A stretch of DNA of 64,000 bases, taken from the NCBI RefSeq assembly GCF_988243305.1, contig NZ_OZ547138.1, one strand, 5' to 3'. The notes beneath the pieces are model-generated. The model searched no databases, had not been told where the DNA came from, and was given only the letters and a program-made list of their open reading frames with translations. The number at the start of each line of letters is the position of its first letter. Position 1 is the first letter of the stretch. Positions 15,906-59,734 of this stretch are shown piece by piece. The translations under genes were made by a program, and so were the position numbers. Source of the stretch: a plasmid.

Positions 15906-16435
15906 CTTATGCCTTTTTTATCTTCATTTGGGACCGTGCTTTTCTTCGGAGTATCACTATTCGTTAACTGCTGTTTATCAATAAAATTCCTGATGTTATC
16001 AAGTGCTTCCTTTGTTTTTAGAATGCGCTTGATATCCATTTCATCCCGCCCGGTCATTCTTTTTCCGGACAAAAGACGCTCAAGAAGCTCCTGTTTCGCA
16101 TCAGGAGAATCTTTGGCGAGATCCATCAGGTTAAGCAAATCTTCACGATCGAGAGGAAAGAAGTATTTTACAAAATACTTGAAAAGCGAAAGAAAGTAGT
16201 ATGCTGTCCATGCAATACAGAAACCGATTCTGAGAAACTCATTGTCAACTATACAGAAATACAGGTATACAATCAGGAGAATAGGTAAAATCCATAATAC
16301 TATAGCTAAAAAAATATATACGGGGATCAGGCGTCTGTATGCCCGTTCATGTTTATTCAGGATGAATAAAATCTTCTCCGCTTCTGAATCACACATAACA
16401 TTCTCTTCCCATTTTTTCTGATACGTAATGTCCAC
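15902..16435 (-). CDS. Hypothetical 177-aa two-TM membrane protein
   Basis: Two adjacent hydrophobic helices followed by a charged helical C-terminal domain. It lies 17 nt downstream of the FinO-domain gene. Confidence 0.6.
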   Translation of the reverse strand: MDITYQKKWEENVMCDSEAEKILFILNKHERAYRRLIPVYIFLAIVLWILPILLIVYLYFCIVDNEFLRIGFCIAWTAYYFLSLFKYFVKYFFPLDREDLLNLMDLAKDSPDAKQELLERLLSGKRMTGRDEMDIKRILKTKEALDNIRNFIDKQQLTNSDTPKKSTVPNEDKKGIR

Positions 16436-21418: not shown

Positions 21419-22238
21419 GGCACTGTTGCAAAGTTAGCGATGAGGCAGCCTTTTGTCTTATTCAAAGGCCTTACATTTCAAAAACTCTGCTTACCAGGCG
21501 CATTTCGCCCAGGGGATCACCATAATAAAATGCTGAGGCCTGGCCTTTGCGTAGTGCACGCATCACCTCAATACCTTTGATGGTGGCGTAAGCCGTCTTC
21601 ATGGATTTAAATCCCAGCGTGGCGTTGATTATCCGTTTCAGTTTGCCATGATCGCATTCAATCACGTTGTTCCGGTACTTAATCTGTCGGTGTTCAACGT
21701 CAGACGGGCACCGGCCTTCGCGTTTGAGCAGAGCAAGCGCGCGACCATAGGCGGGCGCTTTATCCGTGTTGATGAATCGTGGGATCTGCCACTTCTTCAC
21801 GTTGTTGAGGATTTTACCCAGAAACCGGTATGCAGCTTTGCTGTTACGACGGGAGGAGAGATAAAAATCGACAGTGCGGCCCCGGCTGTCGACGGCCCGG
21901 TACAGATACGCCCAGCGGCCATTGACCTTCACGTAGGTTTCATCCATGTGCCACGGGCAAAGATCGGAAGGGTTACGCCAGTACCAGCGCAGCCGTTTTT
22001 CCATTTCAGGCGCATAACGCTGAACCCAGCGGTAAATCGTGGAGTGATCGACATTCACTCCGCGTTCAGCCAGCATCTCCTGCAGCTCACGGTAACTGAT
22101 GCCGTATTTGCAGTACCAGCGTACGGCCCACAGAATGATGTCACGCTGAAAATGCCGGCCTTTGAATGGGTTCATGTGCAGCTCCATCAGCAAAAGGGGA
22201 TGATAAGTTTATCACCACCGACTATTTGCAACAGTGCC
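21419..22238 (-). mobile_element. IS26 (copy 1, 820 bp)
   Basis: 14-bp terminal IRs: GGCACTGTTGCAAA at 21419-21432 and its complement at 22225-22238. The length is exactly 820 bp. Flanking 8-mers (gaaaaaag / gactggtt) differ, so there is no TSD. Confidence 0.97.
21471..22175 (-). CDS. tnp26: IS26 transposase Tnp26 (Asn at residue 184)
   Basis: 234 aa from MNPFKGRHFQRDIILWAVRWYCKYG. Reads KRIINATLGF where copy 2 has KRIIGATLGF. Confidence 0.97.
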   Translation of the reverse strand: MNPFKGRHFQRDIILWAVRWYCKYGISYRELQEMLAERGVNVDHSTIYRWVQRYAPEMEKRLRWYWRNPSDLCPWHMDETYVKVNGRWAYLYRAVDSRGRTVDFYLSSRRNSKAAYRFLGKILNNVKKWQIPRFINTDKAPAYGRALALLKREGRCPSDVEHRQIKYRNNVIECDHGKLKRIINATLGFKSMKTAYATIKGIEVMRALRKGQASAFYYGDPLGEMRLVSRVFEM

Positions 22239-36435: not shown

Positions 36436-37206
36436 ATGAACGAAACGCTGAATGCACTGATTTATCGCCACGCCAGCAACCTGCTGCTGGCGCAGGGCTG
36501 GCCGGAAGAGACGGATGTTGACCAGCGTAATCCGAAGTATCCGGGCTGGATCAGCATTTACGTGCGGCTGGATGTGCCCCGGCTGGCGACGTTACTTATC
36601 AACCGTCACGGCGGCGTACTGCCGCCGCTCCTGGCCTCCGCCATTCAGAAACTGACCGGAACCGGGGCGGAACTGGTACTGTCCGGCAGTCAGTGGCAGT
36701 CGCTGCCGGTACTTCCGGCAGACGGAACACAGGTGTTTTTCCCGTATGCCGGAGAATGGCTGACCGAAGACGAAATCAGGGCAGTTCTTGATGCAGTGCG
36801 CAATGCAGTACGAAGCATCTGTTACCAAGTGGCAGAAGATGCCCGGCGTATCCGGGCGGCGCTGACCACCACCGGTCAGACGTTGCTGACCCGCCAGACG
36901 CGCCGCTTTCGTCTGGTTGTGAAGGAAAGCGATTACCCCTGCTGGCTTGATGAAGATGACGAAAATCTGCCCGTGGTGCTCGATGCCATTCTGAACCGTG
37001 GCGCTCGTTTTTCGTCGGTGGAAATGTATCTGGTCAGTGAGTGTGTGGAGCATATCCTGTCCAGTGGGCTGGCCTGCGATGTGCTGCGTATACCTGATGA
37101 ACCGTCCCGTCGCTGGTTTGACCGGGATATTCTGCGGGAGGTGGTCCTGGAAGCCCGGACTGAAATCCGCAGCATGGCGGATGCACTGGCGAAAATCCGG
37201 AAATGA
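36436..37206 (+). CDS. Hypothetical 256-aa leading-region protein
   Basis: Co-directional ORF with good coding appearance. No recognisable motifs. Confidence 0.65.
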
Positions 37207-37266
37207 TGACGCTGGCGGGGAAAATCTCCGCCTTTTCCAGCCGGTCCCCGGAAAGAGCAAAAGGAT

Positions 37267-37619
37267 GTCGCCGCAGGCTCCGCTTTACCCGGCCATGCGG
37301 GGCATGGCCTTGTGGGTTTTCAGTTATGTGGCCTCAGCGTCGTGTGCGGGCTGTGCCGTGCCTCCATCGTAGCCGGGCTTCTGCGGGCGGGTTGCAAGGT
37401 AAGGTGAACCGCTGCGGTCACCCGGTCCCTCCTTCCCGTCTGCCGTGATTTTCCGGTCGTTCACCCGCTCAGATTTCGCGGTCTCACCCTCCAACTCCCG
37501 TCAGCCGTGCGCGTCAGGCTGCGGCTTCCCTTGCGCCCTTGCAACCCTGCAGGTCCGGCAAAGATGGAGGCACGGCACCGCCCGGTGTCGCGGAATATGT
37601 GAACAACGGAGGAAATCCC
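37267..37619. repeat. Family-A hairpin element, copy 1 (ssi/Frpo-like candidate ssDNA promoter)
   Basis: About 353 bp, near-identical to 44215-44568. 37353-37368 pairs perfectly with 37563-37578 (21 bp with 1 mismatch over 37348-37368/37563-37583). It ends at the ATG of the klcA/ardB-like gene. Confidence 0.7.
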
Positions 37620-38045
37620 ATGCAGTATGCGAAACCTGTCACTCTGAACGTTGAAGAGTGCGACCGTCTGTCTTTTCTGCCTTACCTGTTTGGCCTGGAT
37701 TTTCTGTATGCCGAAGCGTCTGTATACGCGCTGGCGAAAAAAATGATGCCGGAATATGAAGGCGGATTCTGGCACTTCATCCGCCTGCCGGACGGTGGCG
37801 GTTACATGATGCCGGATGGCGACCGTTTTCATCTGGTCAACGGTGAAAACTGGTTTGACCGTACCGTGAGTGCTGATGCCGCAGGCATCATTTTGACTTC
37901 CCTTGTGATTAACCGCCAGTTGTGGCTGTACCACGACAGCGGGGATGCAGGGTTGACACACCTGTACAGGATGCGCGATGCGCAGTTGTGGAGCCACATC
38001 GAATTTCACCCCGAATGCAACGCGATTTACGCGGCACTTGACTGA
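37620..38045 (+). CDS. KlcA/ArdB-family antirestriction protein
   Basis: 141 aa: ...RLSFLPYLFGLDFLYAEASVYALAKKMMPEYEGGFWHFIRLPDGGGYMMP... This matches the KlcA/ArdB pattern. The track start at 37539 lies inside the repeat. Confidence 0.75.
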   Translation: MQYAKPVTLNVEECDRLSFLPYLFGLDFLYAEASVYALAKKMMPEYEGGFWHFIRLPDGGGYMMPDGDRFHLVNGENWFDRTVSADAAGIILTSLVINRQLWLYHDSGDAGLTHLYRMRDAQLWSHIEFHPECNAIYAALD

Positions 38046-38091
38046 TTAACGGACGGGGCGGCAATGCCGCCCCTGTAAAGGAGACGAGAAC

Positions 38092-38514
38092 ATGTACTGT
38101 ACTGTTAAAGAAATCATCCGCGATGTACTGGATACAGACGTGCCGGACAGTGAATGCGTTTTTGCCGTGGTGCTGACCCGTGGGGATGTGCGTCACATAG
38201 CCCAGGACTGGAACCTGTCAGACGATGAGCTGGAAACCGTCATGCAGCGACTGGACGATGCCTTTGAGCATGGTGCGGATGTCAGCGTTGTTCACGACGT
38301 TGTTCGTGAACTGATGGAAGAAAAGCGCGCCAGCCGTCATGTGACAGTCCCGGCGGTGATGCTGGAAAAAGTGATGGCGCTGGCAGGCAGTGAAATGAAG
38401 CGCCTGTATGCCGTCGGGAGTGAGAACGGGGGCGACGGTGACGCATTCGTCAGGGAGGAACGCGAAGCAATGGACGTTGTGTTACAGGCGCTGGACGGGG
38501 AGACGATGTCATGA
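38092..38514 (+). CDS. Hypothetical 140-aa leading-region protein (paralog of 35957-36391)
   Basis: Preceded by an AAGGAGACGAG SD. Acidic, with the shared RHVTVPAVML core. Confidence 0.65.
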   Translation: MYCTVKEIIRDVLDTDVPDSECVFAVVLTRGDVRHIAQDWNLSDDELETVMQRLDDAFEHGADVSVVHDVVRELMEEKRASRHVTVPAVMLEKVMALAGSEMKRLYAVGSENGGDGDAFVREEREAMDVVLQALDGETMS

Positions 38515-38702
38515 ATATCAGCACAGAAACCCGCGAAATTCTGCGTAATTACAGGGCCGTGATTAATGCGCGGCGTCGTGAAATGGGGCAGAAACCGCTC
38601 ACCACCGCGCAGATTGTTGATGAAATCTGCGATTTTGTGGCGAATCAGCAGGCGGTTTTCCTGGGCGGTCACTACATCCTTCAGGGCAGCAGAAACAGGT
38701 GA
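38511..38702 (+). CDS. Hypothetical 63-aa protein
   Basis: Start overlaps the upstream stop (ATGA). Short and unrecognised. Confidence 0.45.
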   Translation: MNISTETREILRNYRAVINARRREMGQKPLTTAQIVDEICDFVANQQAVFLGGHYILQGSRNR

Positions 38703-38905
38703 TACAGGGGCAGGCGGTGGAGGCCGCCTGTCAGCCCGCGCGAAAACCCCAGGCAGGCTGACGCCTGCCGGAAACGCGGGGTGCAGCGCCTGCGGCGCTG
38801 CCGGCCCGGCTTTCCGGTCAGAAGGTAGTGTATGGCTGTATGCAGGGAACAGGAGTGATATTCCGTGACACTGTCACCGTTTCTGGCTGTCTTTTATTGC
38901 GCCCA

Positions 38906-39471
38906 CTTCGGCTCCCGGCTGCCTGGCGGCATCCGGTCGTCAGGCCCGACTCCGACGGGCAGCTGCTGGCGCACCCGCCAGTCTCCGCCGAACCCGCTGG
39001 CGCGGTTTCGGGCTGCCGCTACGGTCCGATGCGTGAAAACCCGGCTTGCAGCGACCGTTCCGGTCGCGCCGCCCCTGTCGCGCCGTGACCTGCGCTCCCT
39101 GCACACCTGACGGTGTGTGAGGAAACTGCGCCTGATGGCGCAGCAGTCCTCCCTCCTGCCGCCACTCCTGCGGCCTGTTTCCCGCTGTGGACTTTCCGGG
39201 GGGCAGACGTAACCCCCTCCCGTTCCATCTGTCCAGGGTGAGATGCACCGGCCACAAAATTTTTAGCCATGAACCCGGCAAAAAATTTTGCGTCCGCCCC
39301 CGGACAGCTGCCCCGTGAGGCGGTAAACGGGCCCCCATCGGAAAGGTCCACTGCGGGGAGAAAACCCTGTGAAGTGGACGGCAGGAGGAGCTTTCGCTCC
39401 TCTGAAGGGGCACATGAACGTCCCGTCGCCGGTATCCGGTTTATCTCACATCTTTCAGTCAGGAGGTTCTT
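38906..39471. repeat. Family-B hairpin element, copy 1 (upstream of ssb)
   Basis: About 566 bp with high similarity to 45251-45800, and its 3' two-thirds to 48281-48653. 39152-39161 pairs with 39379-39388, and 39181-39199 pairs imperfectly with 39339-39358. It ends at the ssb ATG. Confidence 0.7.
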
Positions 39472-39999
39472 ATGAGTGCACGTGGTATCAACAAGGTCAT
39501 CCTCGTCGGGCGTCTGGGCAATGATCCGGAGGTCCGTTACATCCCCAACGGGGGCGCAGTGGCAAACCTGCAGGTGGCCACGTCAGAAAGCTGGCGCGAC
39601 AAACAGACGGGGGAGATGCGGGAGCAGACGGAATGGCACCGCGTGGTGCTGTTCGGCAAGCTCGCGGAAGTGGCAGGTGAATATCTGCGCAAGGGCGCGC
39701 AGGTCTACATCGAGGGGCAACTCCGTACCCGTAGCTGGGAAGATAACGGTATCACCCGTTACGTCACTGAAATTCTTGTTAAGACCACGGGCACCATGCA
39801 GATGCTGGGGAGTGCACCACAGCAGAACGCTCAGGCGCAACCGAAGCCTCAGCAGTACGGCCAGCCACAGAGTGCTGACGCAACGAAAAAAGGGAGCGCG
39901 AAAACGAAAGGCCGTGGACGTAAGGCTGCGCAGCCGGAGCCTCAGCCGCAACCGCCGGAGGGTGAGGATTACTGGTTTTCAGACGATATCCCGTTCTGA
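39472..39999 (+). CDS. ssb: Plasmid single-stranded DNA-binding protein
   Basis: 175 aa. Starts [48 protein letters not shown] and has an acidic tail DDIPF. Confidence 0.95.
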
Positions 40000-40055
40000 A
40001 TGACTGACTGTGAAAACCGCCCCGTCCAGTGCGGGGCATCACCGGAGATATGAGG

Positions 40056-40289
40056 ATGAGCGAATATTTCAGAATATTTCAGGGGCTGCCTGACGGCTCC
40101 TTTACCCGCGAACAGGCTGAAGCCGTTGCCGCACAGTACCGGAATGTCTTTATCGAGGATGATCAGGGAACGCATTTTCGCCTGGTTGTCCGCAATAACA
40201 GTGGCCTGGTCTGGCGTACCTGGAATTTTGAGGACGGTGCCGGGTACTGGATGAACCATGTCATCCGGAATTTCGGCATTCTTAAGTAA
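40056..40289 (+). CDS. Small leading-region protein (YubL-like)
   Basis: 77 aa from [16 protein letters not shown], with a GGAG SD 8 nt upstream. It occupies the position between ssb and the ParB-like gene, as in F. Confidence 0.6.
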
Positions 40290-40347
40290 GAGAGGTGCCG
40301 GACGCGCGAACGTCCGGCAGGACATAAGCAATTATAAGGGGATGATT

Positions 40348-42306
40348 ATGCCTGTAACGAAGTGTGAACCAGAAACCACCCGCAAAGCAAGCCGTAAATC
40401 TGTAAAAACGCAGGAAACTGTCCTGTCTGCCCTGCTGGCGCAGACGGAGGAAGTGAGCGTGCCGCTGGCCTCGCTGATTAAATCACCGCTGAATGTGCGC
40501 ACGGTGCCGTATTCTGCGGAGTCCGTCAGCGAACTGGCGGAGTCCATTAAGGGCGTTGGCCTGTTGCAGAATCTGGTCGTGCATACCCTGCCTGGTGACC
40601 GTTACGGTGTCGCCGCAGGTGGTCGCCGACTGGCTGCACTCAACATGCTGGCAGAGCGTGGCATTATTCCGGCTGACTGGCCTGTACGCGTGAAGGTTAT
40701 TCCGCAGGAGCTGGCGACTGCCGCATCAATGACTGAAAACGGTCATCGTCGGGATATGCACCCTGCCGAACAGATTGCCGGATTCCGTGCGATGGCGCAG
40801 GAAGGCAAAACGCCTGCACAAATCGGTGATTTGCTGGGCTATTCGCCCCGCCACGTTCAGCGAATGCTGAAACTGGCAGACCTTGCGCCTGTCATCCTCG
40901 ATGCGCTGGCAGAAGACCGCATCACCACAGAGCACTGTCAGGCGCTGGCGCTGGAGAACGACACCGCGCGTCAGGTGCAGGTGTTTGAAGCCGCCTGCCA
41001 GTCGGGATGGGGCGGTAAACCGGAAGTACAGACCATTCGTCGTCTGGTGACCGAAAGTGAAGTGGCGGTGGCGGGGAACAGTAAATTCCGCTTTGTGGGG
41101 GCTGATGCCTTCTCGCCAGATGAACTGCGCACTGATTTGTTCAGCGACGACGAGGGTGGCTATGTGGACTGTGTTGCGCTCGATGCCGCCCTGCTGGAAA
41201 AACTCCAGGCTGTTGCAGAGTTCCTTCGGGAAGCCGAAGGCTGGGGATGGTGCGCCGGACGCATGGAGCCTGTCGGTGAGTGCCGTGAGGATGCCGGAAC
41301 ATACCGCTGTCTGCCGGAGCCGGAAGCGGTGCTGACGGAGGCGGAAGAAGAACGCCTGAACGAACTGATGACGCGTTACGACGCGCTGGAAAACCAGTGT
41401 GAGGAATCCGACCTGCTGGAAGCAGAAATGAAGCTGATTGACTGCATGGCGAAGGTCAGGGCGTGGACGCCGGAGATGCGTGCCGGAAGTGGCGTGGTGG
41501 TGTCCTGGCGTTATGGAAACGTATGTGTCCAGCGTGGTGTGCAGTTGCGCAGTGAAGATGACGCGACTGATGACGCTGACCGCACGGAACAGGTGCAGGA
41601 GAAAGCGTCAGTGGAGGAAATCAGTCTGCCGTTGCTGACGAAAATGTCTTCCGAACGCACGCTGGCAGTCCAGGCAGCACTGATGCAGCAACCGGACAAA
41701 TCCCTGACACTGCTGGCATGGACGCTCTGCCTGAATGTGTTTGACAGCGGAGCGTACAGTAAACCAGCACAAATCAGCCTGGAATGTAAACATTATTCGC
41801 TGACCAGCGATGCGCCGTCAGGGAAGGAAGGTGCCGCATTCCTGGCGCTGATGGCAGAAAAAGCCCGTCTTGCGGCCCTGTTACCGGAGGGATGGTCACG
41901 GGACATGACGACGTTCCTGTCACTCAGTCAGGAGGTGCTGTTATCCCTGCTCAGTTTCTGCACCGCATGCAGCCTTAACGGTGTCCAGACCCGCGAGTGT
42001 GGTCGCACGTCACGCAGTCCGCTTGACTCACTGGAGAGCGCCATCGGTTTTCACATGCGCGACTGGTGGCAGCCGACGAAAGCAAACTTCTTCGGACACC
42101 TGAAAAAGCCGCAGATTATCGCAGCCCTGAATGATGCCGGACTGTCCGGTGCCGCACGGGACGCAGAGAAGATGAAGAAAGGCGATGCCGCTGAACATGC
42201 AGAGTTCCATATGAAAGACAACCGCTGGGTGCCTGGCTGGATGTGTTCACCACGTCCACAGACGGATGCCACTGAACGCGCCGATAACCTGGCTGATGCC
42301 GCCTGA
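40348..42306 (+). CDS. ParB/Srx-nuclease-domain leading-region protein (652 aa)
   Basis: ParB N-terminal motifs are visible: SPLNVRTVPY and VVHTLPGDRYGVAAGGRRLAAL. The start was chosen at MPVTK after an AAGGGG SD. The length matches the F leading-region ParB-like ORF from memory. Confidence 0.8.
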   Translation: MPVTKCEPETTRKASRKSVKTQETVLSALLAQTEEVSVPLASLIKSPLNVRTVPYSAESVSELAESIKGVGLLQNLVVHTLPGDRYGVAAGGRRLAALNMLAERGIIPADWPVRVKVIPQELATAASMTENGHRRDMHPAEQIAGFRAMAQEGKTPAQIGDLLGYSPRHVQRMLKLADLAPVILDALAEDRITTEHCQALALENDTARQVQVFEAACQSGWGGKPEVQTIRRLVTESEVAVAGNSKFRFVGADAFSPDELRTDLFSDDEGGYVDCVALDAALLEKLQAVAEFLREAEGWGWCAGRMEPVGECREDAGTYRCLPEPEAVLTEAEEERLNELMTRYDALENQCEESDLLEAEMKLIDCMAKVRAWTPEMRAGSGVVVSWRYGNVCVQRGVQLRSEDDATDDADRTEQVQEKASVEEISLPLLTKMSSERTLAVQAALMQQPDKSLTLLAWTLCLNVFDSGAYSKPAQISLECKHYSLTSDAPSGKEGAAFLALMAEKARLAALLPEGWSRDMTTFLSLSQEVLLSLLSFCTACSLNGVQTRECGRTSRSPLDSLESAIGFHMRDWWQPTKANFFGHLKKPQIIAALNDAGLSGAARDAEKMKKGDAAEHAEFHMKDNRWVPGWMCSPRPQTDATERADNLADAA

Positions 42307-42357
42307 TGAACAACCACACCGCCCCGCCGGAGACGGGGCGGCAGAGGGAGAAATACG

Positions 42358-42795
42358 ATGATGAATACCGAACTGACACTGAATGCCCTGCAGTCCATGA
42401 ATGCCCAGGAATATGAAGAAATCCGTGCTGCGGGAAGCGATATGCGCCGTAATCTCACTCACGAGGTGATGCGTGAAGTGGACGCACCGGCTAACTGGAT
42501 GATGAACGGAGAGTATGGCAGCGAGTTCGGGGGCTTTTTCCCCGTCCAGGTTCGTTTCACGCCAGCCCACGAACGTTTCCACCTGGCATTATGTTCGCCG
42601 GGAGACGTCTCTCAGCTCTGGATGCTGGTTCTGGTGAATGGTGGTGGACAGCCTTTCGCCGTCGTTCAGGTGCAACATATCTTCACGCCTGTCGCGATCA
42701 GTCACACGCTGGCGCTTGCCGCGACACTGGATGCGCAGGGATACAGTGTTAACGACATCATCCATATCCTGATGGCAGAAGGAGGTCAGGCATGA
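42358..42795 (+). CDS. psiB: Plasmid SOS inhibition protein PsiB
   Basis: The sequence …[72 protein letters not shown]… is near-identical to F PsiB as I recall it. Confidence 0.93.
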
Positions 42796-43511
42796 GCGCA
42801 CGTTCACGGGCACTGATCCCCCTCAGCGCAGAACAACAGGCCGCCATGCAGGCGGTGGCTGTCACAGAACAACGTCGTCGTCAGGGACGCACACTTTCAG
42901 CATGGCCTTATGCCACCGCTTTCTTTCGCTGCCTGAATGGCAGTCGCCGGATTTCGCTGACCGATCTCCGCTTTTTTGCCCCTGCGCTGACGAAGGAGGA
43001 ATTTCATGGCAACCGTCTCCTGTGGCTGGCTGCCGTGGATAAACTGATTGAAAGTTTTGGGGAAGTCTGTGTTCTTCCCCTGCCATCCGATGCGGGGCAC
43101 CGTCTGTTCCCGTCCGTGCCTTTTCGTGAAGGTGAGCGTCGTCGTCAGAAAACCACGCTGACAGAGCAGAAATACAGCCGCCAGCGGGAACGTGAGGCAG
43201 AACGACGGGAACTGGAATACCAGACATGTTTTGCTCAGGCGCAGATTGACCTTGCGTTTCATACTCCCGCCACGGTCGGAAGCTGGTTGTCCCGCTGGTC
43301 TGGTGTTGTTGAGGAGCATGATCTGGAAACGATTTTCTGGGGGTGGTGCGGGCGTTTTCCATCACTGTCATCATTTGACCGGTTTTTCTGGCAGGAGGAA
43401 CCACTCTGGCGGCTGATTTTTGAAGCCGGTGAGGCCGGTCGTGGTGCACCGGTACAGGTACGTGCACTTGAGCAGTGGATGATCCCGAACAAGCTGGAGA
43501 ACGTAATATGA
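42792..43511 (+). CDS. psiA: PsiA
   Basis: 239 aa, overlapping the psiB stop. Canonical psiB-psiA pair. Confidence 0.88.
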
Positions 43512-44104
43512 TGAAATCAGACGAAAAATACCAGGTTCCCGCGTGGATGCGACCTCTGTTGCCGTTGCTCTGCAACACCGGGGGGAACGATCCGGAAGAA
43601 CTGCTGAATGATACAGAAACCACTGCCAGTGCGAATGTTGTCCGTTATGTACTGATAGTTGCTGTGCGGTCGCAGGTTGATCTGCTGCAGCTTCTGTACA
43701 GGAAAGGGCTGTTGCGCACAGAGATACCAGGTGGCTTTTCACCGGAAGAAGCGCAGGCACTCCTGGATAATCTGGTGCGCAGCCATATCAGCAAGGCGCT
43801 GTCGGGCGAGCGAATGGCAGCCCGTGACAGAAATGCCGATCTGGCCTGGATTGGACAGCAACTGGTCGATGCCGCCTGGTTTGTCCGTGCCACACTGGAA
43901 GCGCATGGGATGAGCGTCGGAAATGAGAGTCCCCCTGCTCCGCCGGAGACAATGCCGGACATACAGACACGGGAACTGGTGATGTTGATCAAGCGACTGG
44001 CATCATCGCTGAAAGCGGTGAAACCGGACAGTTGTGTGGTGCGTGAAGCGCAGGACTGGCTGCGCGACAGAAAACTTGTGAGCATCACGGATGTTCTCCG
44101 GTGA
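43508..44104 (+). CDS. Hypothetical 198-aa leading-region protein
   Basis: The ATG overlaps the psiA stop (ATGA). Starts [26 protein letters not shown]. Unknown function. Confidence 0.6.
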   Translation: MMKSDEKYQVPAWMRPLLPLLCNTGGNDPEELLNDTETTASANVVRYVLIVAVRSQVDLLQLLYRKGLLRTEIPGGFSPEEAQALLDNLVRSHISKALSGERMAARDRNADLAWIGQQLVDAAWFVRATLEAHGMSVGNESPPAPPETMPDIQTRELVMLIKRLASSLKAVKPDSCVVREAQDWLRDRKLVSITDVLR

Positions 44105-44214
44105 ACCAGTGGAGGTATGCTTGAGGGGCAGGGACATGCCAGTCATGATCGTTTCATATCAGGGGTGGTCTGGAGGTCATGCGGTGTGCTCCCTGCTCTC
44201 GCCGGAATAAGGAA

Positions 44215-44568
44215 GTCGCCGGCGGCTCCGCTTTTACCCGGCCATGCGGGGCATGGCCTTGTGGGTTTTCAGTTATGTGGCCGCCGTGTCGTGTGCGGGC
44301 TGTGCCGTGCCTCCATCGTAGCCGGGCTTCTGCGGGCGGGATGCAAGGTAAGATGAACCGCTGCGGTCACCCGGTCCCTCCTTCCCGTCTGCCGTGATTT
44401 TCCGGTCGTTCACCCGCTCAGATTTCGCGGTCTCACCCTCCAACTCCCGTCAGCCGTGCGCGTCGGGCTGCGGCTTTCCTTGCGCCCTTGCATCCCTGCA
44501 GGCCCGGCAAAGATGGAGGCACGGCACCGCCCGGTGTCGCAGAACATGTGACTATGGAGGATTCGGGA
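44215..44568. repeat. Family-A hairpin element, copy 2 (upstream of ardA)
   Basis: Near-identical to 37267-37619. 44302-44317 pairs perfectly with 44512-44527. It ends at the ardA ATG. Confidence 0.7.
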
Positions 44569-45069
44569 ATGTCTGTTGTTGCACCTGCTGTATACGTTGG
44601 AACCTGGCACAAATACAACTGTGGAAGCATCGCCGGACGCTGGTTTGACCTGACCACGTTTGATGATGAGCGCGACTTTTTCGCCGCCTGCCGTGCTCTT
44701 CACCAGGATGAAGCCGATCCTGAACTGATGTTTCAGGATTATGAGGGATTCCCGGGGAATATGGCCTCTGAATGTCATATCAACTGGGCCTGGGTTGAAG
44801 GCTTCCGCCGGGCACGGGATGAAGGCTGCGAAGAGGCTTATCGTCTCTGGGTGGATGATACCGGTGAGACGGATTTTGACAGCTTCCGCGATGCCTGGTG
44901 GGGCGAGGCTGACAGTGAGGAGGCTTTTGCGGTTGAGTTCGCCAGTGATACCGGCCTGCTGGCTGACGTGCCGGAGACGGTGGCGCTCTATTTTGACTAT
45001 GAGGCGTATGCGCGGGATTTATTCCTGGACTCCTTCACCTTTATTGACGGTCATGTGTTCCGTCGGTGA
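44569..45069 (+). CDS. ardA: Antirestriction protein ArdA (type I R-M inhibitor, DNA mimic)
   Basis: 166 aa starting MSVVAPAVYVGTWHKYNCGSIAGRWFDLTTFDDERDFFAAC. Highly acidic, with a GGAGG SD. The track start at 44488 lies in the repeat. Confidence 0.92.
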   Translation: MSVVAPAVYVGTWHKYNCGSIAGRWFDLTTFDDERDFFAACRALHQDEADPELMFQDYEGFPGNMASECHINWAWVEGFRRARDEGCEEAYRLWVDDTGETDFDSFRDAWWGEADSEEAFAVEFASDTGLLADVPETVALYFDYEAYARDLFLDSFTFIDGHVFRR

Positions 45070-45250
45070 TTTACTCCCCCGCTCCGGCGGGGGTATGGCC
45101 TGCCAGGCCGCCGGAAAACCCTGGCAGGCTTACGCCTGCCTGAAATGCAGGAGGGCCGCGCCTGCGGCGCTGCCCTTCCTGCCCGTCATGGTGTGAGGCA
45201 TTTTTCTGTTATGTCGTTTCTGTTGTTCTGATTTCCGGAGGCGGGGACAC

Positions 45251-45800
45251 CTTCGGCTCCCGGCTGCCTGGCGGCATCCGGTCGTCAGGCCCGACTCCGA
45301 CAGGCAGCTGCTGGCGCACCCGCCAGTCTCCGCCGAACCCGCTGGCGCGGTTTCGGGCTGCCGCTACGGTCCGATGTCTGAAAAACCAGGCTTGCAGCGA
45401 CCGTTCCGGTCGCGCCGCCTCTGTCGCGCCGTGACCTGCGCTCCCTGCACACCTGACGGTGTGTAAGGAAACTGCGCCTGATGGCGCAGTTGTCTGCCCT
45501 TCCGCCGCCACCCCTGCGGCCTGTTTCCCGCTGTGGACTTTCCGGGGGCTGAAGCGGCCACAACACGTGTCAGCCGTCCAGGGGGGAGATGTACCAGCCA
45601 CAAAACTTTTTGCCGCAAGCGTCAAAAACTTTTGCGTCTGCCCCCGGACAACTGCCCCGTGCCGTGGCTGTCGCTGCCCCATCGGAAAGGTCCACTGCGG
45701 GGAGAAACCCCGAAGAAGTGGACGGCAGAAGGGGCTTTCGCCCCTCCGGGGGAGCAACCGGTCGGCCCGGCGACCTGATTCAGCAGAAGGAGACGTTTTC
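45251..45800. repeat. Family-B hairpin element, copy 2
   Basis: Aligns by eye along its whole length with 38906-39471. It ends at the ATG of the unknown 144-aa ORF. Confidence 0.7.
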
Positions 45801-46235
45801 ATGACAGTCAGCAGCACGATTTCCGTTTTTTGCCGCGACGGGGTGTTCCGTACCGTTTACTGCCACCTGCACGGTGAGCCGACCTGGAACGGTCGCATCC
45901 TGCATACCCACTATGCCACCGGTCAGCAGGCCGAAGCCCTGGTTGAACACGGTGATATCCGTTGCCTCGGTCCCCGTTGCGACAAACCCGCCGGGCATAC
46001 GCTTCAGAACCCGGTGGACGGTGTGACGGCTTATTACGGACGTGACAGTGGTTTCCGGATGGACAGTGAGGCGCGTGAGTACCGTTCTTTCAGGGAGGCC
46101 ATCGCCACGGAAAGCACTGAAGAGGTGCGCTTCCATTATGTGTTCATCGACGGCTACTGGAAGGTGATGTACCGCACGCCGGAAGGCTGGAAGATGAAGT
46201 CGCTTGCGCTGGCACTGCGCCGCTGTCCGAAATGA
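45801..46235 (+). CDS. Hypothetical 144-aa protein directly behind a family-B element
   Basis: ATG at 45801 after an AAGGAGA SD. Starts MTVSSTISVFCRDGVFRTVYCHLHGEPTWNGRIL. The track start at 45459 lies inside the repeat and is rejected. Confidence 0.65.
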   Translation: MTVSSTISVFCRDGVFRTVYCHLHGEPTWNGRILHTHYATGQQAEALVEHGDIRCLGPRCDKPAGHTLQNPVDGVTAYYGRDSGFRMDSEAREYRSFREAIATESTEEVRFHYVFIDGYWKVMYRTPEGWKMKSLALALRRCPK

Positions 46236-46328
46236 AAAAAAGGCAGGGCGATAAACCCTGCCTCTCTCCGCCGGCGCTTCCCCGCCAGGAAGCCCGGCAT
46301 CTCAATCACTATCTATGGAGATTATGCC

Positions 46329-46595
46329 ATGAGACCATCAATTATCTTCGCAACCGCCGAGTATGTAAAGCGTCTGCGTGAAGAGTGCCTGCGGGAGAAT
46401 AAACCCCTGCACCGCCATACCCGCTTCAGACGTCAGGAGCTGGCACAGGATGAGATTAACCCGGACGTCCTGGCGATGAGCGGTCATATCGCCAGACGCT
46501 GCAGTGAGCAGAAGCGGGTGCGTATCCCCGCTATGAAAGCCAGCGAATGGGGCCACCTGCTCCGCGCGCTTGAAATTGAACGGGTCTGCCACTGA
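46329..46595 (+). CDS. Hypothetical 88-aa basic protein
   Basis: Preceded by a GGAG SD. Arg-rich. Unknown function. Confidence 0.5.
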   Translation: MRPSIIFATAEYVKRLREECLRENKPLHRHTRFRRQELAQDEINPDVLAMSGHIARRCSEQKRVRIPAMKASEWGHLLRALEIERVCH

Positions 46596-46659
46596 TTAAC
46601 CCTTGCCGTCTGCCTGTGCAGGCGGCAGGATACGTTCAGACATCTCACCAGGAGGAACC

Positions 46660-47562
46660 GTGAGTAAGAAGAAAAACACCACAACGCCCACGCCGCATGA
46701 TGCCGCGTTCCGGTCGTTCCTGGCGAATCCCGACGTCGCCAGAGATTTTCTGGAACTGCATCTTCCGGCGGAGTACCGGCAGTTGTGCGACCTGTCCACG
46801 CTGAAGCTGGAACCCGCCACCTTTGTAGAGCCGGACCTGCATCAGTACGCCAGCGATATCCTCTGGAGCGTGAAAACCACCGGGGGTGAAGACGGCTATG
46901 TTTATACGCTCATCGAGCACCAGAGCACCGAAAATCTGTACATGCCTTTTCGCATGTTACGTTACAGTGTGGCGGCGATGCAGAGACATCTGGAGCAGCA
47001 CAAAACGTTGCCACTGGTGATTCCGGTGCTGTTCTATCACGGTGAGCGCAGCCCGTACCCGTACAGCATGAACTGGCTGGACTGTTTTGAGAATCCGGCA
47101 CTTGCGGCTAAAATATACACAAAGCCGTTTCCGCTGGTTGATATCACTGTCGTTGATGACAATGAAATCATGAATCATCGCCGGATGGCCGCACTGACGC
47201 TGCTGATGAAGCATATCCGCCATCGTGACATGATGGAGCTGCTGGACAAACTCCCGAAGGTCATGGTGGAAATTTCAGACGAGCAGGTGCGTGTTCTGAT
47301 TCATTACATCGTTAACGCAGGGGACTCTGTATCACCGGAATTTATGCGGGCGCTGGCTGAGCGTCTGCCGCAGCATGAGGATAAACTGATGACTATCGCA
47401 GAACGTCTTGAGCAAAAAGGTCGCCAGGAGGGCAGGATGGAAGGTGCGCTTGAAAAAGCCCTGGCTATTGCGTGCCAGCTTCAGAAAATGGGGATGACGC
47501 CGGAGCAGATTAAGCAGGCTACCGGGCTTTCCGATGACGAACTGAAGAAAATCACTCACTGA
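46660..47562 (+). CDS. Rpn-family (YhgA-like, PD-(D/E)XK) recombination-promoting nuclease
   Basis: 300 aa from a GTG after a GGAGGA SD. Contains HDAAFRSFL…, DILWSVK…, YVYTLIEHQS and PLVIPVLFYHG motifs typical of Rpn/transposase_31 proteins. It also has the characteristic C-terminal MTIAERLEQKGRQEG… tail. Confidence 0.8.
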   Translation: MSKKKNTTTPTPHDAAFRSFLANPDVARDFLELHLPAEYRQLCDLSTLKLEPATFVEPDLHQYASDILWSVKTTGGEDGYVYTLIEHQSTENLYMPFRMLRYSVAAMQRHLEQHKTLPLVIPVLFYHGERSPYPYSMNWLDCFENPALAAKIYTKPFPLVDITVVDDNEIMNHRRMAALTLLMKHIRHRDMMELLDKLPKVMVEISDEQVRVLIHYIVNAGDSVSPEFMRALAERLPQHEDKLMTIAERLEQKGRQEGRMEGALEKALAIACQLQKMGMTPEQIKQATGLSDDELKKITH

Positions 47563-47574
47563 TGAGAGTATCAC

Positions 47575-47599
47575 AGCCCGGCAAAATGCCGGGCTTTTT
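47575..47599 (+). terminator. Rho-independent terminator after rpn
   Basis: agcccggca-aaa-tgccgggct followed by TTTT. Confidence 0.7.
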
Positions 47600-47624
47600 A
47601 TCCAGCAGGAGCAGAGCAAACAGT

Positions 47625-47795
47625 ATGACGCTTGCAGAACGTCTTATACAGAAAGGTTTTGAAAAAGGCGCTCTTGAAGTGGCGCGGGAAATAGCCTGTC
47701 GGCTTCGGGATATGGGCTGGCCGCCGAAACGGATTCAGGAGGCTACCGGACTTTCCGGTGAAGAACTGAAAAAACTGTTTCCTGATGAGCAGTAG
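47625..47795 (+). CDS. Free-standing 56-aa paralog of the Rpn C-terminal tail
   Basis: MTLAERLIQKGFEKGALEVAREIACRLRDMGWPPKRIQEATGLSGEELKKLF aligns with the Rpn tail MTIAERLEQKGRQEG..EKALAIACQLQKMGMTPEQIKQATGLSDDELKKI. AGGAG lies 13 nt upstream. Confidence 0.5.
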   Translation: MTLAERLIQKGFEKGALEVAREIACRLRDMGWPPKRIQEATGLSGEELKKLFPDEQ

Positions 47796-47825
47796 CCTGG
47801 CATTCAGCCAGGCTGTGAATCACGC

Positions 47826-48077
47826 TCACACATCCTCTGCCGTTTCCCCCAGTTCATTTTCCAGACGCCTGATGATATCTGCCTTACGCATCCCCTGCAT
47901 GTGAGGCAGCAGGTCACGGACTGAAAGAGCCTGGGTGGTCCTCCAGACGGTGACGTCCACCTGTTCCGCATTTTCCCAGGCGTGCCATGTTCTCTGCGTC
48001 ACGCCAAATTCTCTGGCCGCTTTTTCGCGTGACCAGAGCATGCTTTTTCGCCAGATTCGCAGTTCCCAGTCGGTCAT
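47826..48077 (-). CDS. Small HTH DNA-binding protein (XRE-like)
   Basis: 83 aa. REKAAREFGVTQRTWHAWEN is a helix-turn-helix. Twin palindromic operators lie upstream. Confidence 0.7.
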   Translation of the reverse strand: MTDWELRIWRKSMLWSREKAAREFGVTQRTWHAWENAEQVDVTVWRTTQALSVRDLLPHMQGMRKADIIRRLENELGETAEDV

Positions 48078-48092
48078 AAAATACCTTTGAAA

Positions 48093-48178
48093 AAGTGAAA
48101 AAACTTCACTTTATTTTATCACCATAATCACCAAATCAGCGCGAAAAATAAGTGTGAAAAAGTGAAGAAATTTCACTT
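48093..48178. promoter_or_regulatory. Two 19-bp palindromes AAGTGAA-N5-TTCACTT (putative operators of the HTH gene)
   Basis: Copies at 48093-48111 and 48160-48178, 67 bp centre-to-centre. They bracket an AT-rich promoter-like stretch immediately upstream of the 47826-48077 gene. Confidence 0.65.
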
Positions 48179-48280
48179 TTTTTAATTGCAGATGTCGTGC
48201 TGTTTTCTCTGTTTTCACCTGTGCGGGAGTGGTGTGCCAGTGACCACCACATGCCATTGTTGTGCCGTCGTTTTTCTTCA

Positions 48281-48653
48281 GTCGCGCCGGATGCGGCGCT
48301 CCCTGCACACCTGACGGTGTGTAAGGCCACTGCGCCTGATGGCGCAGCTGTCTCTGCCTGTCTGCCGCCGCACTGCGGCCTGTTCTCCGCAGACGGACTT
48401 TCCGGGGGAACATACACGACCACATCCCGTTTCAGTTATCCAGGGGAGAGATGTACCAGCCACAAAACTTTTTGCCGCAGGCGTCAAAAACTTTTGCGTC
48501 TGCCCCCGGACAACTGCCCCGTGACGTGGTGAGCATCCCCCGTCGGAAAGGTCCACTGCGGGGAAATCCCCGAAGACCCGGACGGCAGAAGGAGCTTCGC
48601 TCCTCCGGGAAATGACCTGGCTGACCCGGCAGTCGTGACGATGAGGAGACAAT
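48281..48653. repeat. Family-B hairpin element, copy 3 (lacks the first ~170 bp)
   Basis: Aligns with the 3' two-thirds of copies 1 and 2 from gtcgcgccg…ccctgcacacctgacggtgtgt onward. It ends at the start of the 283-aa ORF. Confidence 0.65.
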
Positions 48654-49505
48654 GTGATGAATCAGACTTTACCCACTGCTGACCTGAATACTGCCGGCAC
48701 GACAGATATTATTCCGTCTGTGGCCATCGACCGCATTATCGCGCAGCGTAACGAAGGTATTGCACTGTTCATGCAGGCGATGGAATGCCTGGCGACAGCA
48801 CGCAGGATTCTGCTCGATGCTTCTGGTGACATTTTTCTCTACGGGTTTGAAGACTGCGTGACTGACTCTGTTCGATGCATGGATAAACCGGAAGAAGCAA
48901 AAAAGAATATCACCCGTCTTGCCGACCGTAAAATCTGGGACCGCCTGATGGCGGATACGGGGATGTACACCTTCATGAGTTCATGCCAGCGTGATGAGTG
49001 GAACAGCCAGCTGATGAGCGACACCTGTCCTGAAATCACCCTGGACAATGTGCTGGCAACTTTTCGCCATCTGAATGCCAGCAAGATGCAGACATTTGAA
49101 CAGAGACTGATTGATGTCTACCGGAAATTGTCATGGGATTACAGAACCAATAATCCCTGCCGTCTGGGCAAGAAAATCATTATTGAAAACCTGCTGTACC
49201 GCTGGAGTAACGGGCGTGTGACGCTGGACTGCAGCGGACGGGAGGCACTGGATGACCTGGTACGTCCGTTTTATCTGCTGGAGGGACGCAACGTTCCTGA
49301 CTTCAGGAACAGCATCGGGGCGCAGTATGGTGAATATCTCGGGAACGGCGATAATGTCGGTAAGCTGTTAGAAGGGGAATATTTTACGGTGCGTGGCTAC
49401 CAGAAAGGGACCGTACACATTGTCTTTAAGCGTCCTGACCTTGTTGAAAAACTGAATGATATTATTGCACGGCATTATCCTGGTGCATTGCCGCCACGAG
49501 TCTGA
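48654..49505 (+). CDS. Hypothetical 283-aa leading-region protein
   Basis: GTG at 48654 or ATG at 48657, after a GAGGAG SD. No motif I can name with confidence. Confidence 0.65.
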   Translation: MMNQTLPTADLNTAGTTDIIPSVAIDRIIAQRNEGIALFMQAMECLATARRILLDASGDIFLYGFEDCVTDSVRCMDKPEEAKKNITRLADRKIWDRLMADTGMYTFMSSCQRDEWNSQLMSDTCPEITLDNVLATFRHLNASKMQTFEQRLIDVYRKLSWDYRTNNPCRLGKKIIIENLLYRWSNGRVTLDCSGREALDDLVRPFYLLEGRNVPDFRNSIGAQYGEYLGNGDNVGKLLEGEYFTVRGYQKGTVHIVFKRPDLVEKLNDIIARHYPGALPPRV

Positions 49506-49516
49506 TTAAACAGAAA

Positions 49517-49547
49517 AGCCCTGGTATTTATGCCGGGGCTTTTTTTC
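49517..49547. terminator. Hairpin plus T-run between convergent genes
   Basis: agccctgg-tatttatg-ccggggct (1 mismatch) followed by TTTTTTT. Confidence 0.55.
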
Positions 49548-49589
49548 TGTAATCATCATAATCTCAGAACACGATGTGACATTGTCACA

Positions 49590-49931
49590 TCAATTGTTGT
49601 TCATATCGATGCCATCTTTCCTGCCTGAATCTGTCTTTTTAGGTGCTGTTTTAGAGGAAGAACGGCGGGATGGTTTTTTCGATTCTGCTTCCCGAATAAT
49701 GTCGCGAAGTGCTTTCTCTCCTACTTCATACCCTGCATTTTTGAGCGTGTCACGAACATCTGCCAGTGTATAACCCTTTGTCCTTACCAGGACAATGATG
49801 TCATCACGAATGGCATCAAGAAAATCACGCAATGTTTTCCGTTGAGCGGTGAGGTCCGGCAATTCCGATAAGGCAGCTTTTGCCAGCTGGATGTCATCAT
49901 CTGAGTAAAATTTTTTAGAAGCCATTGGCAC
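49590..49931 (-). CDS. Hypothetical 113-aa protein adjacent to oriT
   Basis: Divergent from nikA. Helical N-terminal half and a basic Ser/Lys-rich tail. Possibly an oriT-region DNA-binding accessory protein; unverified. Confidence 0.55.
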   Translation of the reverse strand: MPMASKKFYSDDDIQLAKAALSELPDLTAQRKTLRDFLDAIRDDIIVLVRTKGYTLADVRDTLKNAGYEVGEKALRDIIREAESKKPSRRSSSKTAPKKTDSGRKDGIDMNNN

Positions 49932-50048
49932 TTTCTCTCTGTTTTATGTTGAAGCCTGATTTTATCACCAAAACTGCCTCCTGGCAGGGCTGCGCCCTGC
50001 CTCTGCCGTCTGCATAAGACTATGATGCACAAAAATAACAGGCTATAA

Positions 50049-50135
50049 TTGACCGAAAAACGGGACAGGATGTGGGAATGTCGGACCGCGCACGCGCACT
50101 CAGACATTCCCCACCTGGTCAGGGCTTTGCCCCGA
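50049..50135 (-). other. oriT: oriT (IncI1/R64-type) with predicted nick site
   Basis: The minus strand reads GGGGTGTCGGGGCAAAGCCCTGACC…GGGAATGTCTGAGTGCGCGTGCGCGGTCCGACATTCCCACATCCTG/TCCCG. There are inverted repeats at 50074-50082 and 50103-50111. The RP4/R64-like ATCCTG/T nick motif places nic between 50066 and 50065. Confidence 0.7.
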
Positions 50136-50156
50136 CACCCCGGTAAGGAGCAGACC

Positions 50157-50489
50157 ATGAGTGAGAAGAAAACCCGAACGGGCAGTGAGAACAGGAAGAG
50201 AATTGTAAAATTCACGGCGAGATTCACGGAGGATGAGGCTGAAATCGTAAGAGAAAAAGCGGAGTCAAGTGGACAGACGGTTTCAACATTTATACGAAGT
50301 TCTTCACTGGATAAGGTGGTTAACTGCCGTACTGACGACCGTATGATTGATGAGATTATGCGTCTTGGCCGCCTTCAGAAGCATCTGTTTGTGGAGGGAA
50401 AACGCACTGGTGATAAGGAGTATGCAGAGGTTCTTGTTGCCATTACTGAATATGTCAATGCTCTGCGAAGAGACTTAATGGGACGCTGA
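50157..50489 (+). CDS. nikA: Relaxosome accessory protein NikA (RHH)
   Basis: 110 aa, the R64 NikA length. AAGGAG SD. It lies immediately downstream of oriT and upstream of nikB. Confidence 0.88.
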   Translation: MSEKKTRTGSENRKRIVKFTARFTEDEAEIVREKAESSGQTVSTFIRSSSLDKVVNCRTDDRMIDEIMRLGRLQKHLFVEGKRTGDKEYAEVLVAITEYVNALRRDLMGR

Positions 50490-50500
50490 GATAACTGCTG

Positions 50501-58854: not shown

Positions 58855-59734
58855 GGCTCTGTTGCAAAGATTGGCGGCAGTCAGAGGTAGGCTGTCGCTC
58901 TGCGCCGATCAGGCGGCTGCTGCGAAATGGTGGTTGAGCATGCCCATGGCCTCCGTCAGCGCCGAGGGCCCAATGCCAAAAGCTCTCTCCACAAGGCGCA
59001 CCTCGCCCCTGATGCCGGGCTGCAGGCACCAGGGGCGAGCCTGTCCTTTGCGCAGGGCTCGCATGACTTCGAATCCCTTGATCGTGGCATAGGCCGTGGG
59101 GATCGATTTGAAACCGCGCACCGGCTTGATCAGTATCTTGAGCTTTCCGTGATCGGCCTCGATCACGTTATTGAGATACTTCACCTGCCGGTGGGCCGTC
59201 TCCCGGTCCAGCTTTCCTTCGCGCTTCAATTCGGTGATCGCTGCACCATAGCTCGGCGCTTTGTCGGTATTGAGCGTGGCAGGCTTTTCCCAGTGCTTCA
59301 GGCCTCGCAGGGCCTTGCCCAGGAACCGCTTCGCTGCCTTGGCGCTGCGGGTCGGCGACAGGTAGAAATCGATCGTGTCGCCCCGCTTGTCGACTGCCCG
59401 GTACAGGTAGGTCCACTTGCCCCGCACCTTGACGTAGGTTTCATCCAGGCGCCAGCTCGGATCAAAGCCACGCCGCCAGAACCAGCGCAGCCGCTTCTCC
59501 ATCTCCGGGGCGTAGCACTGGACCCAGCGATAGATCGTCGTATGGTCGACCGAAATGCCGCGTTCCGCCAGCATTTCCTCAAGGTCGCGATAGCTGATCG
59601 GATAGCGACAATACCAGCGCACCGCCCACAGGATCACATCACCCTGGAAATGGCGCCACTTGAAATCCGTCATCGTTCCGTCCGTCCAATCTCCGCCAAG
59701 CATGCTCAAGCTTCACGATTTTTGCAACAGAGCC
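58855..59734 (-). mobile_element. IS6100 (880 bp)
   Basis: IRs GGCTCTGTTGCAAA at 58855-58868 and its complement at 59721-59734. The length is exactly 880 bp. Confidence 0.95.
58909..59673 (-). CDS. IS6100 transposase
   Basis: 254 aa from MTDFKWRHFQGDVILWAVRWYCRYPISYRDLEEML (IS6 family). The track start at 59709 is 12 codons too long. Confidence 0.93.
   Translation of the reverse strand: MTDFKWRHFQGDVILWAVRWYCRYPISYRDLEEMLAERGISVDHTTIYRWVQCYAPEMEKRLRWFWRRGFDPSWRLDETYVKVRGKWTYLYRAVDKRGDTIDFYLSPTRSAKAAKRFLGKALRGLKHWEKPATLNTDKAPSYGAAITELKREGKLDRETAHRQVKYLNNVIEADHGKLKILIKPVRGFKSIPTAYATIKGFEVMRALRKGQARPWCLQPGIRGEVRLVERAFGIGPSALTEAMGMLNHHFAAAA

Follow-up and report, generated by a model that had tools for sequence, protein, structure and literature searches.

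A repeated element of about 550 nt lies ahead of ssb in a 64,000-nt stretch of plasmid DNA (the window; contig NZ_OZ547138.1 of RefSeq assembly GCF_988243305.1). Judged by their sequences, its three copies in the window are class 1 single-stranded DNA (ssDNA) promoters of the Frpo family, namely the already known ssi3, ssi2 and ssi1 of the plasmid leading region. Copies 1 and 2 additionally carry at the 5′ end a module of about 170 nt, which is a separate conserved G+C-rich element and no part of the class 1 promoter. It is likely, in our judgement, that the three copies are class 1 promoters and that the module is a separate boundary or accessory element of the transferred strand (T strand), which may shield the promoter hairpin.

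The three repeat copies and the class 1 promoter family

Three-way alignment, a repeat finder and a blastn comparison with the window agree with one another and with what a first-pass annotation of the sequence had drawn, namely three copies at 38906-39471, 45251-45800 and 48281-48653. A core of ~330-395 nt occurs exactly three times in the window (39076-39471, 45422-45746 and 48281-48605), copies 2 and 3 being 83.5% and 79.8% identical to copy 1, while the 5′ part occurs exactly twice (38899-39075 and 45251-45419; 97% identical). The match of copy 3 begins, as annotated, at ...gtcgcgccg (48281), and the 170 nt preceding it are unrelated (49% identity).

The strand on which the copies are read was taken from the site where transfer starts (oriT). 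At 50060-50135 on the minus strand an inverted repeat precedes a nick-region motif, …CACATCCTG/TCCCG…, recognized by comparison with the IncP/IncI nick-region consensus YATCCTG/Y (the slash marking the nick). The minus strand over ~50063-50130 reads GGGGTGTCGGGGCAAAGCCCTGACCAG…CACATCCTGTCCCGTTTTTCGG and contains this motif, with the nick at ~50065; a relaxase gene lies at 50501. The motif's place on the minus strand identifies this strand as the T strand, and hence as the template for every gene headed by the repeats. These genes are all on the plus strand and located between the elements and oriT.

Alignment of the minus strand with reference Frpo and ssi sequences (Samuel et al. 2024, Supplementary Table 2) shows that the part common to all copies matches the published ssi1-3 or Frpo class 1 family, in agreement with the initial proposal of an ssDNA promoter. 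Copy 1 (39075-39405, minus strand) matches ssi3 (Frpo3) of plasmid ColIb-P9 at 98.5% over 331 nt (AJ238399.1:11381-11711), copy 2 (45421-45748, minus strand; main hairpin ~45498-45732) is nearest to ssi2 (88.4%, and 87.2% to ssi1), and copy 3 (48279-48607, minus strand; main hairpin ~48358-48592) matches ssi1 at 98.2%. The published promoter part is only ~330 nt long, which bears out the suspicion that an element of ~550 nt exceeds one such promoter.

Frpo and ssi elements are ssDNA promoters (PMC9849209; PMC11541004), and the Frpo hairpins, which recruit RNA polymerase on ssDNA, are needed for early leading-gene expression in F (PMC9849209). In pESBL, ssi1-3 have been classed as class 1 ssDNA promoters, the strongest class, with starts mapped by 5′ rapid amplification of cDNA ends (Wen et al. 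2025, PMC12672017). IncI1 plasmids have been described as having three Frpo repeats, with recombination between them (PMC3817090), and an IncI-gamma study named three operons ssi3 to ssi1.

All three copies have two small perfect hairpins, CACACCTGACGGTGTG (at 39102, 45448 and 48306) and CTGCGCCTGATGGCGCAG (at 39126, 45472 and 48330), whose T-strand loops are GTCA and ATCA (39102-39143, minus strand, in copy 1). The long imperfect promoter hairpin of copy 1 runs from 39152 (CCTCCTGCCG) to 39388 (CGGCAGGAGG) on the minus strand and was recovered both as a 254-nt self-inverted blast match and in folds; its apex bears two A/T blocks (~39256-39291). The A/T doublets that had been annotated are found at 39256/39280, 45602/45624 and 48464/48486, except that the first one of copy 1 reads AAAATTTTTAGC and is inexact against the motif given for them. 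Folded as ssDNA, the minus strand has z scores of -9.8, -10.0 and -7.0 (copies 1, 2 and 3), and none of 100 shuffles was as stable. A -35-like TGGACA (5/6, T strand; 39230-39235) is paired in the copy 1 stem, and no relevant duplex sigma-70 promoters were predicted within the two full copies.

The copies had also been said to end at start codons. This stands for ssb (39472) and for the 144-aa open reading frame (ORF) at 45801, and differs only slightly for the third gene, whose annotated start is the ATG at 48657 and not the GTG at 48654.

A conserved structured module beside the promoters

The published ssi sequences stop at …GGCGCGACAG (T strand), the exact point where the match of copy 3 to copies 1 and 2 ends; the published boundary seems to have been drawn from this three-way homology. 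In AJ238399.1, which we take to be ~11.7 kb long, the listed ssi3 end at 11711 would reach the end of the entry. Beyond the boundary, copy 1 continues with a hairpin, H1 (39051-39067, minus strand; GCGACCG-GAA-CGGTCGC on the T strand), that joins the module to the promoter, and then with the module core (38899-39034, minus strand), a predicted multi-helix junction of elements P1, Pm, H2, H3, P5 and H4. The corresponding hairpin and core of copy 2 lie at 45397-45413 and 45244-45379 (minus strand). H1 is a covarying hairpin in 39 sequence variants and is also present in Frpo1 and Frpo2 of F. Copy 3 has neither H1 nor the module.

The module has a G+C content of 71-75%, against 53% for the window. 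The module sequences of copies 1 and 2 (38906-39075 and 45251-45421) agree at 96.5% over 170 nt, and the adjoining cores at 79.5%. Such a contrast could stem either from stronger constraint on the module or from a gene-conversion tract of its own.

More than 5000 PLSDB records carry the module at ≥95% identity, at about two places per record; one such plasmid is IncFIA/MOBF, and there too the module stands before ssb. More distant homologues were sought in one genome per species with the pattern GCCCGAAACC-N6-16-TTCGGCGGAG, which yielded 120 loci, ~75 of them real. The homologues are 70-85% identical to the window copies and come from about 20 enterobacterial genera, among them Escherichia, Klebsiella, Enterobacter, Citrobacter, Serratia, Pantoea, Erwinia, Yersinia, Buttiauxella, Kluyvera, Leclercia, Lelliottia and Raoultella. 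A covariance model, R1, was built from 44 homologues (132 positions, 34 pairs). It has exactly two matches in the window, at 45244-45379 (116.9 bits) and 38899-39034 (103.7 bits, E ~5e-23), with none near copy 3, and finds 103 copies across the window and 74 other loci, including copies without the search pattern. Where a locus has several R1 matches they are on the same strand, except in L048, which has one per strand. The module is thus conserved in many plasmids and genera outside this plasmid, one of the two points on which the annotation had made its separability depend; on the other, the 550 bp do not behave as one indivisible hairpin, for the module folds as its own domain.

A few loci fall outside the usual setting. 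A module copy in an Enterobacter hormaechei chromosome (L111) presumably sits in an integrated element, and another (L089/L112) is in a contig assigned to a non-enterobacterial genus (Pseudomonas lundensis). Eight short contigs (L038, L052, L118, L003, L086, L087, L092 and L122) labelled Streptomyces, Bacillus, Ferruginibacter, Geobacteraceae, Dysgonomonas or Erysipelotrichaceae hold near-identical enterobacterial plasmid modules, most likely through contamination. No module copies were found in phage records or IMG/VR.

According to the model, the module is a structured unit of hairpin H1 and a multi-helix junction of ~135 nt. In T-strand order it comprises H1, a linker with CATCAGAC, the 3-bp long-range helix P1, the mini-hairpin Pm, H2 (CCGAAACC…GGGTTCGG), GGCGGAG, H3, GGCGGAGT, the short helix P5 enclosing GACGAC and H4, and a tail, GGAGCCGAAGGGGGCCA. 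The hairpins each keep their fold across many different sequences. In a plain MAFFT alignment, 92.7% of cells are standard pairs, versus 28-51% when the partners are slid by 1-3 columns, and 18 pairs (177 cells) change on both sides, a level reached by none of 500 shuffles. In a model-fitted alignment of 94 distinct sequences, which is biased towards the structure and in which the H2 flanks are fixed by the retrieval pattern, 95.3% of cells are paired and 25 of the 34 pairs show compensatory change. The long-range pair 12-97 of P1 is CG in 23 sequences, AT in 18 and TA in two, with one mismatch.

For the CCCT motif, RNAalifold offered another partner, the GGGG of the 3′ tail, which was rejected for its weaker fit (CG 20, AT 10, 14 unpaired, against CG 23, AT 18, TA 2 and one unpaired for the partner chosen). 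The CS-6 feature of ssoA-type single-strand origins was looked for as well and is lacking. Such origins of rolling-circle plasmids have CS-6 (TAGCGT/A) in a terminal loop and an RSB site; TAGC is found in 43 of the 44 modules (CAGC in L042), but its GC lies in the Pm stem, not in a loop, and the next base is G or C. A protein-coding reading was also considered, for RefSeq annotates a hypothetical protein of 82 aa over copy 1 (WP_024189960.1, 38840-39088). It has no Pfam match, and homologue indels and loop lengths are not multiples of three, so this is probably not a gene.

Strand was assessed from loops, because the wobble test was uninformative: 31 G.T against 36 A.C pairs give no RNA-like excess and do not discriminate between the strands. 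Among unique hairpin variants, 79 have loops of the form G..A on the T strand and one has such a loop on the other strand (T..C on the T strand). Typical T-strand loops are c(GCA)g, c(GAA)g, c(GTCA)g and c(GCCA)g. The loops d(cGNAg) and d(cGNNAg) are classic hyperstable DNA loops, and GYCA-type loops differ from the GNRA loops of RNA. This asymmetry, together with position, points to folded ssDNA on the T strand rather than RNA.

The module is a portable partner of several ssDNA-promoter cores. In ~60 of 70 distinct instances it lies ~100-170 nt 3′ (T strand) of an imperfect inverted repeat of 220-320 nt whose score is far above that of shuffles. Inverted-repeat alignment with shuffles was used for this count in place of RNA-parameter folding of 580-nt flanks, which failed to discriminate. 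The adjoining repeats are of at least four apex types (A/T doublets, CGCGGTTTACCGCG, a Serratia type and CAAGGGCGCC), and some correspond to the Frpo′ and Frpo* candidates of Samuel et al. The genes that follow module-bearing elements include ssb, DUF932-like, antirestriction, DUF4942, DUF3560 and DUF5983 genes. A module with its own folded domain that stands beside several types of promoter core bears out the separability that the first-pass annotation had suspected for these ~170 nt.

No description of the module was found in the literature searched; Bates 1999, Nasim 2004 and Masai and Arai 1997 were outside that search, so an earlier mention is possible.

Possible roles of the module

The ssDNA-promoter mechanism is established for near-identical sequences in the literature, and by analogy the window copies would work in the same way. 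Transcription from ssDNA, with zygotic induction of the downstream genes, has been reported for the near-identical elements of ColIb-P9 and pESBL and for the homologues in F. Starting from the nick near 50065, the minus strand would enter the recipient with its 5′ end leading, and each imperfect inverted repeat of ~240 nt in the entering strand would snap back to a long hairpin imitating a duplex promoter. Host RNA polymerase would then transcribe the leading genes (the ssb-psiB-psiA operon, the operon of the 144-aa ORF and the DUF4942 gene) before the complementary strand is made, and conversion to duplex would destroy the hairpin and turn the promoter off. Of the T strand, the gene would be first to enter, followed by the promoter hairpin, the small hairpins, H1 and finally the module. 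Read-through RNA polymerase and the complementary-strand DNA polymerase, both moving 3′ to 5′ on the template, would reach the module just before the promoter hairpin, and we favour a boundary role because the module sits where both would do so. Both module copies of the window follow co-oriented operons (klcA and ardA) driven by class 2 promoters.

Is the module needed for the promoter to fire? In copy 3 (ssi1) its slot is occupied by a minus-strand helix-turn-helix (HTH) regulator gene and two 42-nt direct repeats (47826-48186), each containing an operator-like palindrome, GTGAAnAAAnTTCAC, and the junction between the HTH regulator and ssi1 is kept in 1985 plasmids. Because ssi1 lacks the module in all of these, yet class 1, ssi1 included, is the strongest class in pESBL, the module is probably not needed for firing. 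A fragment of F ssiD that ends before the module slot was reportedly active in vitro in the hands of Masai and Arai in 1997. The F ssiD sequence in the table of Samuel 2024 also stops short of this slot. We therefore give little credence to the whole ~550 nt being one promoter unit in which the module, by aiding the fold or excluding SSB, is needed for full activity, even though the ~60 of 70 diverse instances hold it at a fixed short distance from a promoter-type hairpin and it would enter the recipient right after that hairpin; its folding as a domain of its own also argues against a single unit.

Several points weigh against a separate boundary element beside class 1 promoters. The strength data come from pESBL and the junction data from the window and the 1985 plasmids, an ssi1 junction that pESBL may not share. 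No -10 hexamer could be assigned with confidence in the copy 1 hairpin fold, the thermodynamic z scores of the module alone are modest (-2.2 and -3.1), and it is from geometry alone that we infer the boundary role. In F, most of the delay in strand conversion disappears once the class 2 promoter ssp2 is deleted, and ssp1b, which bears the F-type sequence in the module slot, adds little further delay (Fraikin et al. 2026, 10.64898/2026.01.09.698686); the latter result speaks against a strong replication block at that place. Co-oriented genes or ORFs also lie upstream of class 2 and class 3 promoters (shown for the two class 2 copies of the window only), yet these promoters have no module, so that it cannot be an insulator of operons in general.

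Among the other roles for a separate module, plausibility falls from a priming or primosome-loading site to a protein-binding platform and then to a role in plus-sense RNA. A priming signal, loading the PriA primosome or directing primase on the SSB-coated T strand and distinct from the RNA-polymerase-dependent Frpo, is unlikely. In its favour, the module would be folded ssDNA that resists SSB and belongs to the strand from which the complement has to be made. Like the module, G4 oric and the phiX174 n′ primosome assembly site group several G+C-rich hairpins, with loops of the c(GNA)g or c(GNNA)g type, on the strand to be copied; stem-loop I of G4 oric, c(GAAA)g, lies beside a CTG start, and the phiX174 F-G spacer contains GAAGCGG and GCGAAGC, the latter recurring in four of 19 Pm variants. 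Primosome assembly sites of the phiX174 type are hairpin DNA with an AAGCGG hexamer; this hexamer precedes H1 in 10 of the 44 sequences and is absent from 34. There is no sequence or model similarity to these sites, R1 giving only noise on phage G4 (best 7.5 bits), and the CTG next to H2 is not conserved: the six bases after H2 contain it in 23 of 44 sequences, being CTTACC in 12 and CCCGGC in five. The primase site raised in the first-pass annotation thus lacks the G4-type features. Moreover, extension of a primer made at the module would run on across the promoter hairpin and shut it down early. Complementary synthesis beyond the leading region is discontinuous and paced with DNA entry, so primers must arise somewhere; in F, early conversion downstream of class 1 promoters is rifampicin-sensitive and hence RNA-polymerase-dependent (10.64898/2026.01.09.698686).

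Binding of a protein (a host factor, or a product common to leading regions such as the ParB-like protein, SSB or PsiB) to the invariant single-stranded linkers CATCAGAC, GGCGGAG (twice), GACGAC and GGAGCCGAAGG is a role that we consider quite unlikely. Forty-seven columns, in the linkers and the ascertained H2 flanks, are invariant while the helices vary freely, and the ssb-psiB gene block is common to the IncI and IncF backbones on which the element occurs. Part of this invariance is ascertainment, the retrieval pattern having fixed 20 of those bases; the downstream genes differ between copies, and no candidate protein was identified. Doubtful, too, is a function in the plus-sense read-through RNA of the klcA and ardA operons, as a stabiliser of the 3′ end, a site of processing, or a silencer of the anti-Shine-Dalgarno type (CUCCGCC). 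Base-pair covariation alone cannot separate the strands, the position behind co-oriented operons would suit such a role, and CTCCGCC occurs twice on the plus strand. The loops speak for the minus strand, however, since the corresponding plus-sense U..C loops have no known stability, neither strand has a G.U excess, and the module lies upstream of the class 1 start, hence outside the mRNA of that promoter. A search of both strands of 36500-50500 against Rfam 15 gave only three chance-level matches (E 0.29-0.71, 19-21 bits), all far below gathering scores and none on the module; one of them, Six3os1_1 (48292-48382), falls inside the copy 3 promoter core. The terminator suggested in the first-pass annotation also falls away, as no intrinsic terminators were predicted on either strand of 38899-39075 or 45244-45421.

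That the module has no function, being a passenger of an old duplication kept similar by gene conversion, is highly improbable. The window copies are 96.5% identical and recombination between the repeats is documented (PMC3817090), but homologues of 70-85% identity in ~20 genera keep every helix through compensatory changes, and the module is more conserved than the adjacent promoter cores. Setting the T-strand boundary or accessory element more broadly, we propose only tentatively that the module represents an unrecognised class of cis-acting ssDNA element, a folded T-strand junction partnering ssDNA promoters across Enterobacterales. It would control the engagement of host polymerases or the primosome with the incoming strand, whether through primosome loading for discontinuous complementary-strand synthesis or through delaying conversion and read-through at the promoter.

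Plasmid context and related systems

Conjugative plasmids of the IncI-gamma/K1 group, from E. coli and Salmonella, match a 666-bp query around copy 1 at 100% identity, and by its gene content the window reads as the leading region of such a plasmid followed by oriT. Gene calls were taken from the RefSeq annotation of an identical plasmid, NZ_CP145695.1. The plus-strand genes are, in order, a DNA methylase gene, a klcA-like antirestriction gene, ssb, DUF905, parB-like, psiB, psiA, ardA, the 144-aa ORF, an Rpn-family gene, DUF4942, nikA/mobA and the relaxase gene. Copy 1 is separated from ssb (39472-39999) by a leader with the ribosome-binding site AGGAGG (39406-39471, plus strand), and ssb is the first gene of the ssi3 operon (ssb, DUF905, parB-like, psiB and psiA). 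The gene headed by copy 2 (45801-46235, plus strand) belongs to no Pfam family, and that headed by copy 3 (48657-49505, plus strand) is a DUF4942 gene (PF13708, E = 2e-50).

The klcA-like and ardA antirestriction genes are each preceded by one copy of a second repeat (37284-37583 and 44233-44532; 97% identical), which, as far as sequence tells, answers to the class 2 ssDNA promoters that Wen et al. 2025 describe (PMC12672017). Neither copy has the module before it. Two further repeats in the window are an A/T-rich direct pair (15470-15556 and 16219-16313; 83-95% identical, ~750 nt apart) and a 191-nt direct repeat (21976-22166 and 59474-59664) of 73% identity whose copies are 37.5 kb apart.

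The ColIb-P9 elements ssi1, ssi2 and ssi3 are said to go back to Bates et al. 1999. With these and with class 1 of pESBL (PMC12672017) the window copies share sequence, order, spacing, position relative to oriT, headed genes and the long T-strand hairpin. Over the shared ~330 nt there is no difference; the published ColIb-P9 elements, ending at ...GGCGCGACAG, lack H1 and the 135-nt junction.

Frpo1/ssiD and Frpo2 of F (Couturier et al. 2023, PMC9849209) have in common with the window copies the family, the mechanism, a hairpin centre of 75-78% identity and H1 (GCGACCGGAACGGTCGC), while their small hairpins differ in sequence and keep the hairpin form. Both extend ~120 nt past H1 with a common sequence, …GGGATGGAAGCCCGCCAGGGCGGAGACAGC…, that is unlike the module. 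R1 matches nothing in the leading region of F, whose sequence in this slot is therefore not detectably homologous. In the F locus (L002) this shared sequence of ~120 nt occupies the slot after H1 at ~8120-8250 (Frpo2) and 13510-13640 (Frpo1).

The class 2 roadblock ssp2 of F (10.64898/2026.01.09.698686) sets a precedent for roles of ssDNA structures outside transcription: like the module, it is a stable T-strand structure of the leading region met by complementary synthesis before the downstream genes. It differs in being itself a promoter hairpin; the module has no long hairpin, no promoter features and no sequence shared with it.

For this plasmid group the three promoters are textbook and nothing new. 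What the published promoter boundaries, drawn from three-way homology, cut off is conserved sequence. The first minutes after plasmid entry decide the spread of resistance plasmids, and ssDNA structures of the leading region set early expression and the timing of conversion. The module, present in thousands of IncI and IncF resistance plasmids beside their strongest early promoters, could matter in this setting and is a precisely delimited target in that region.

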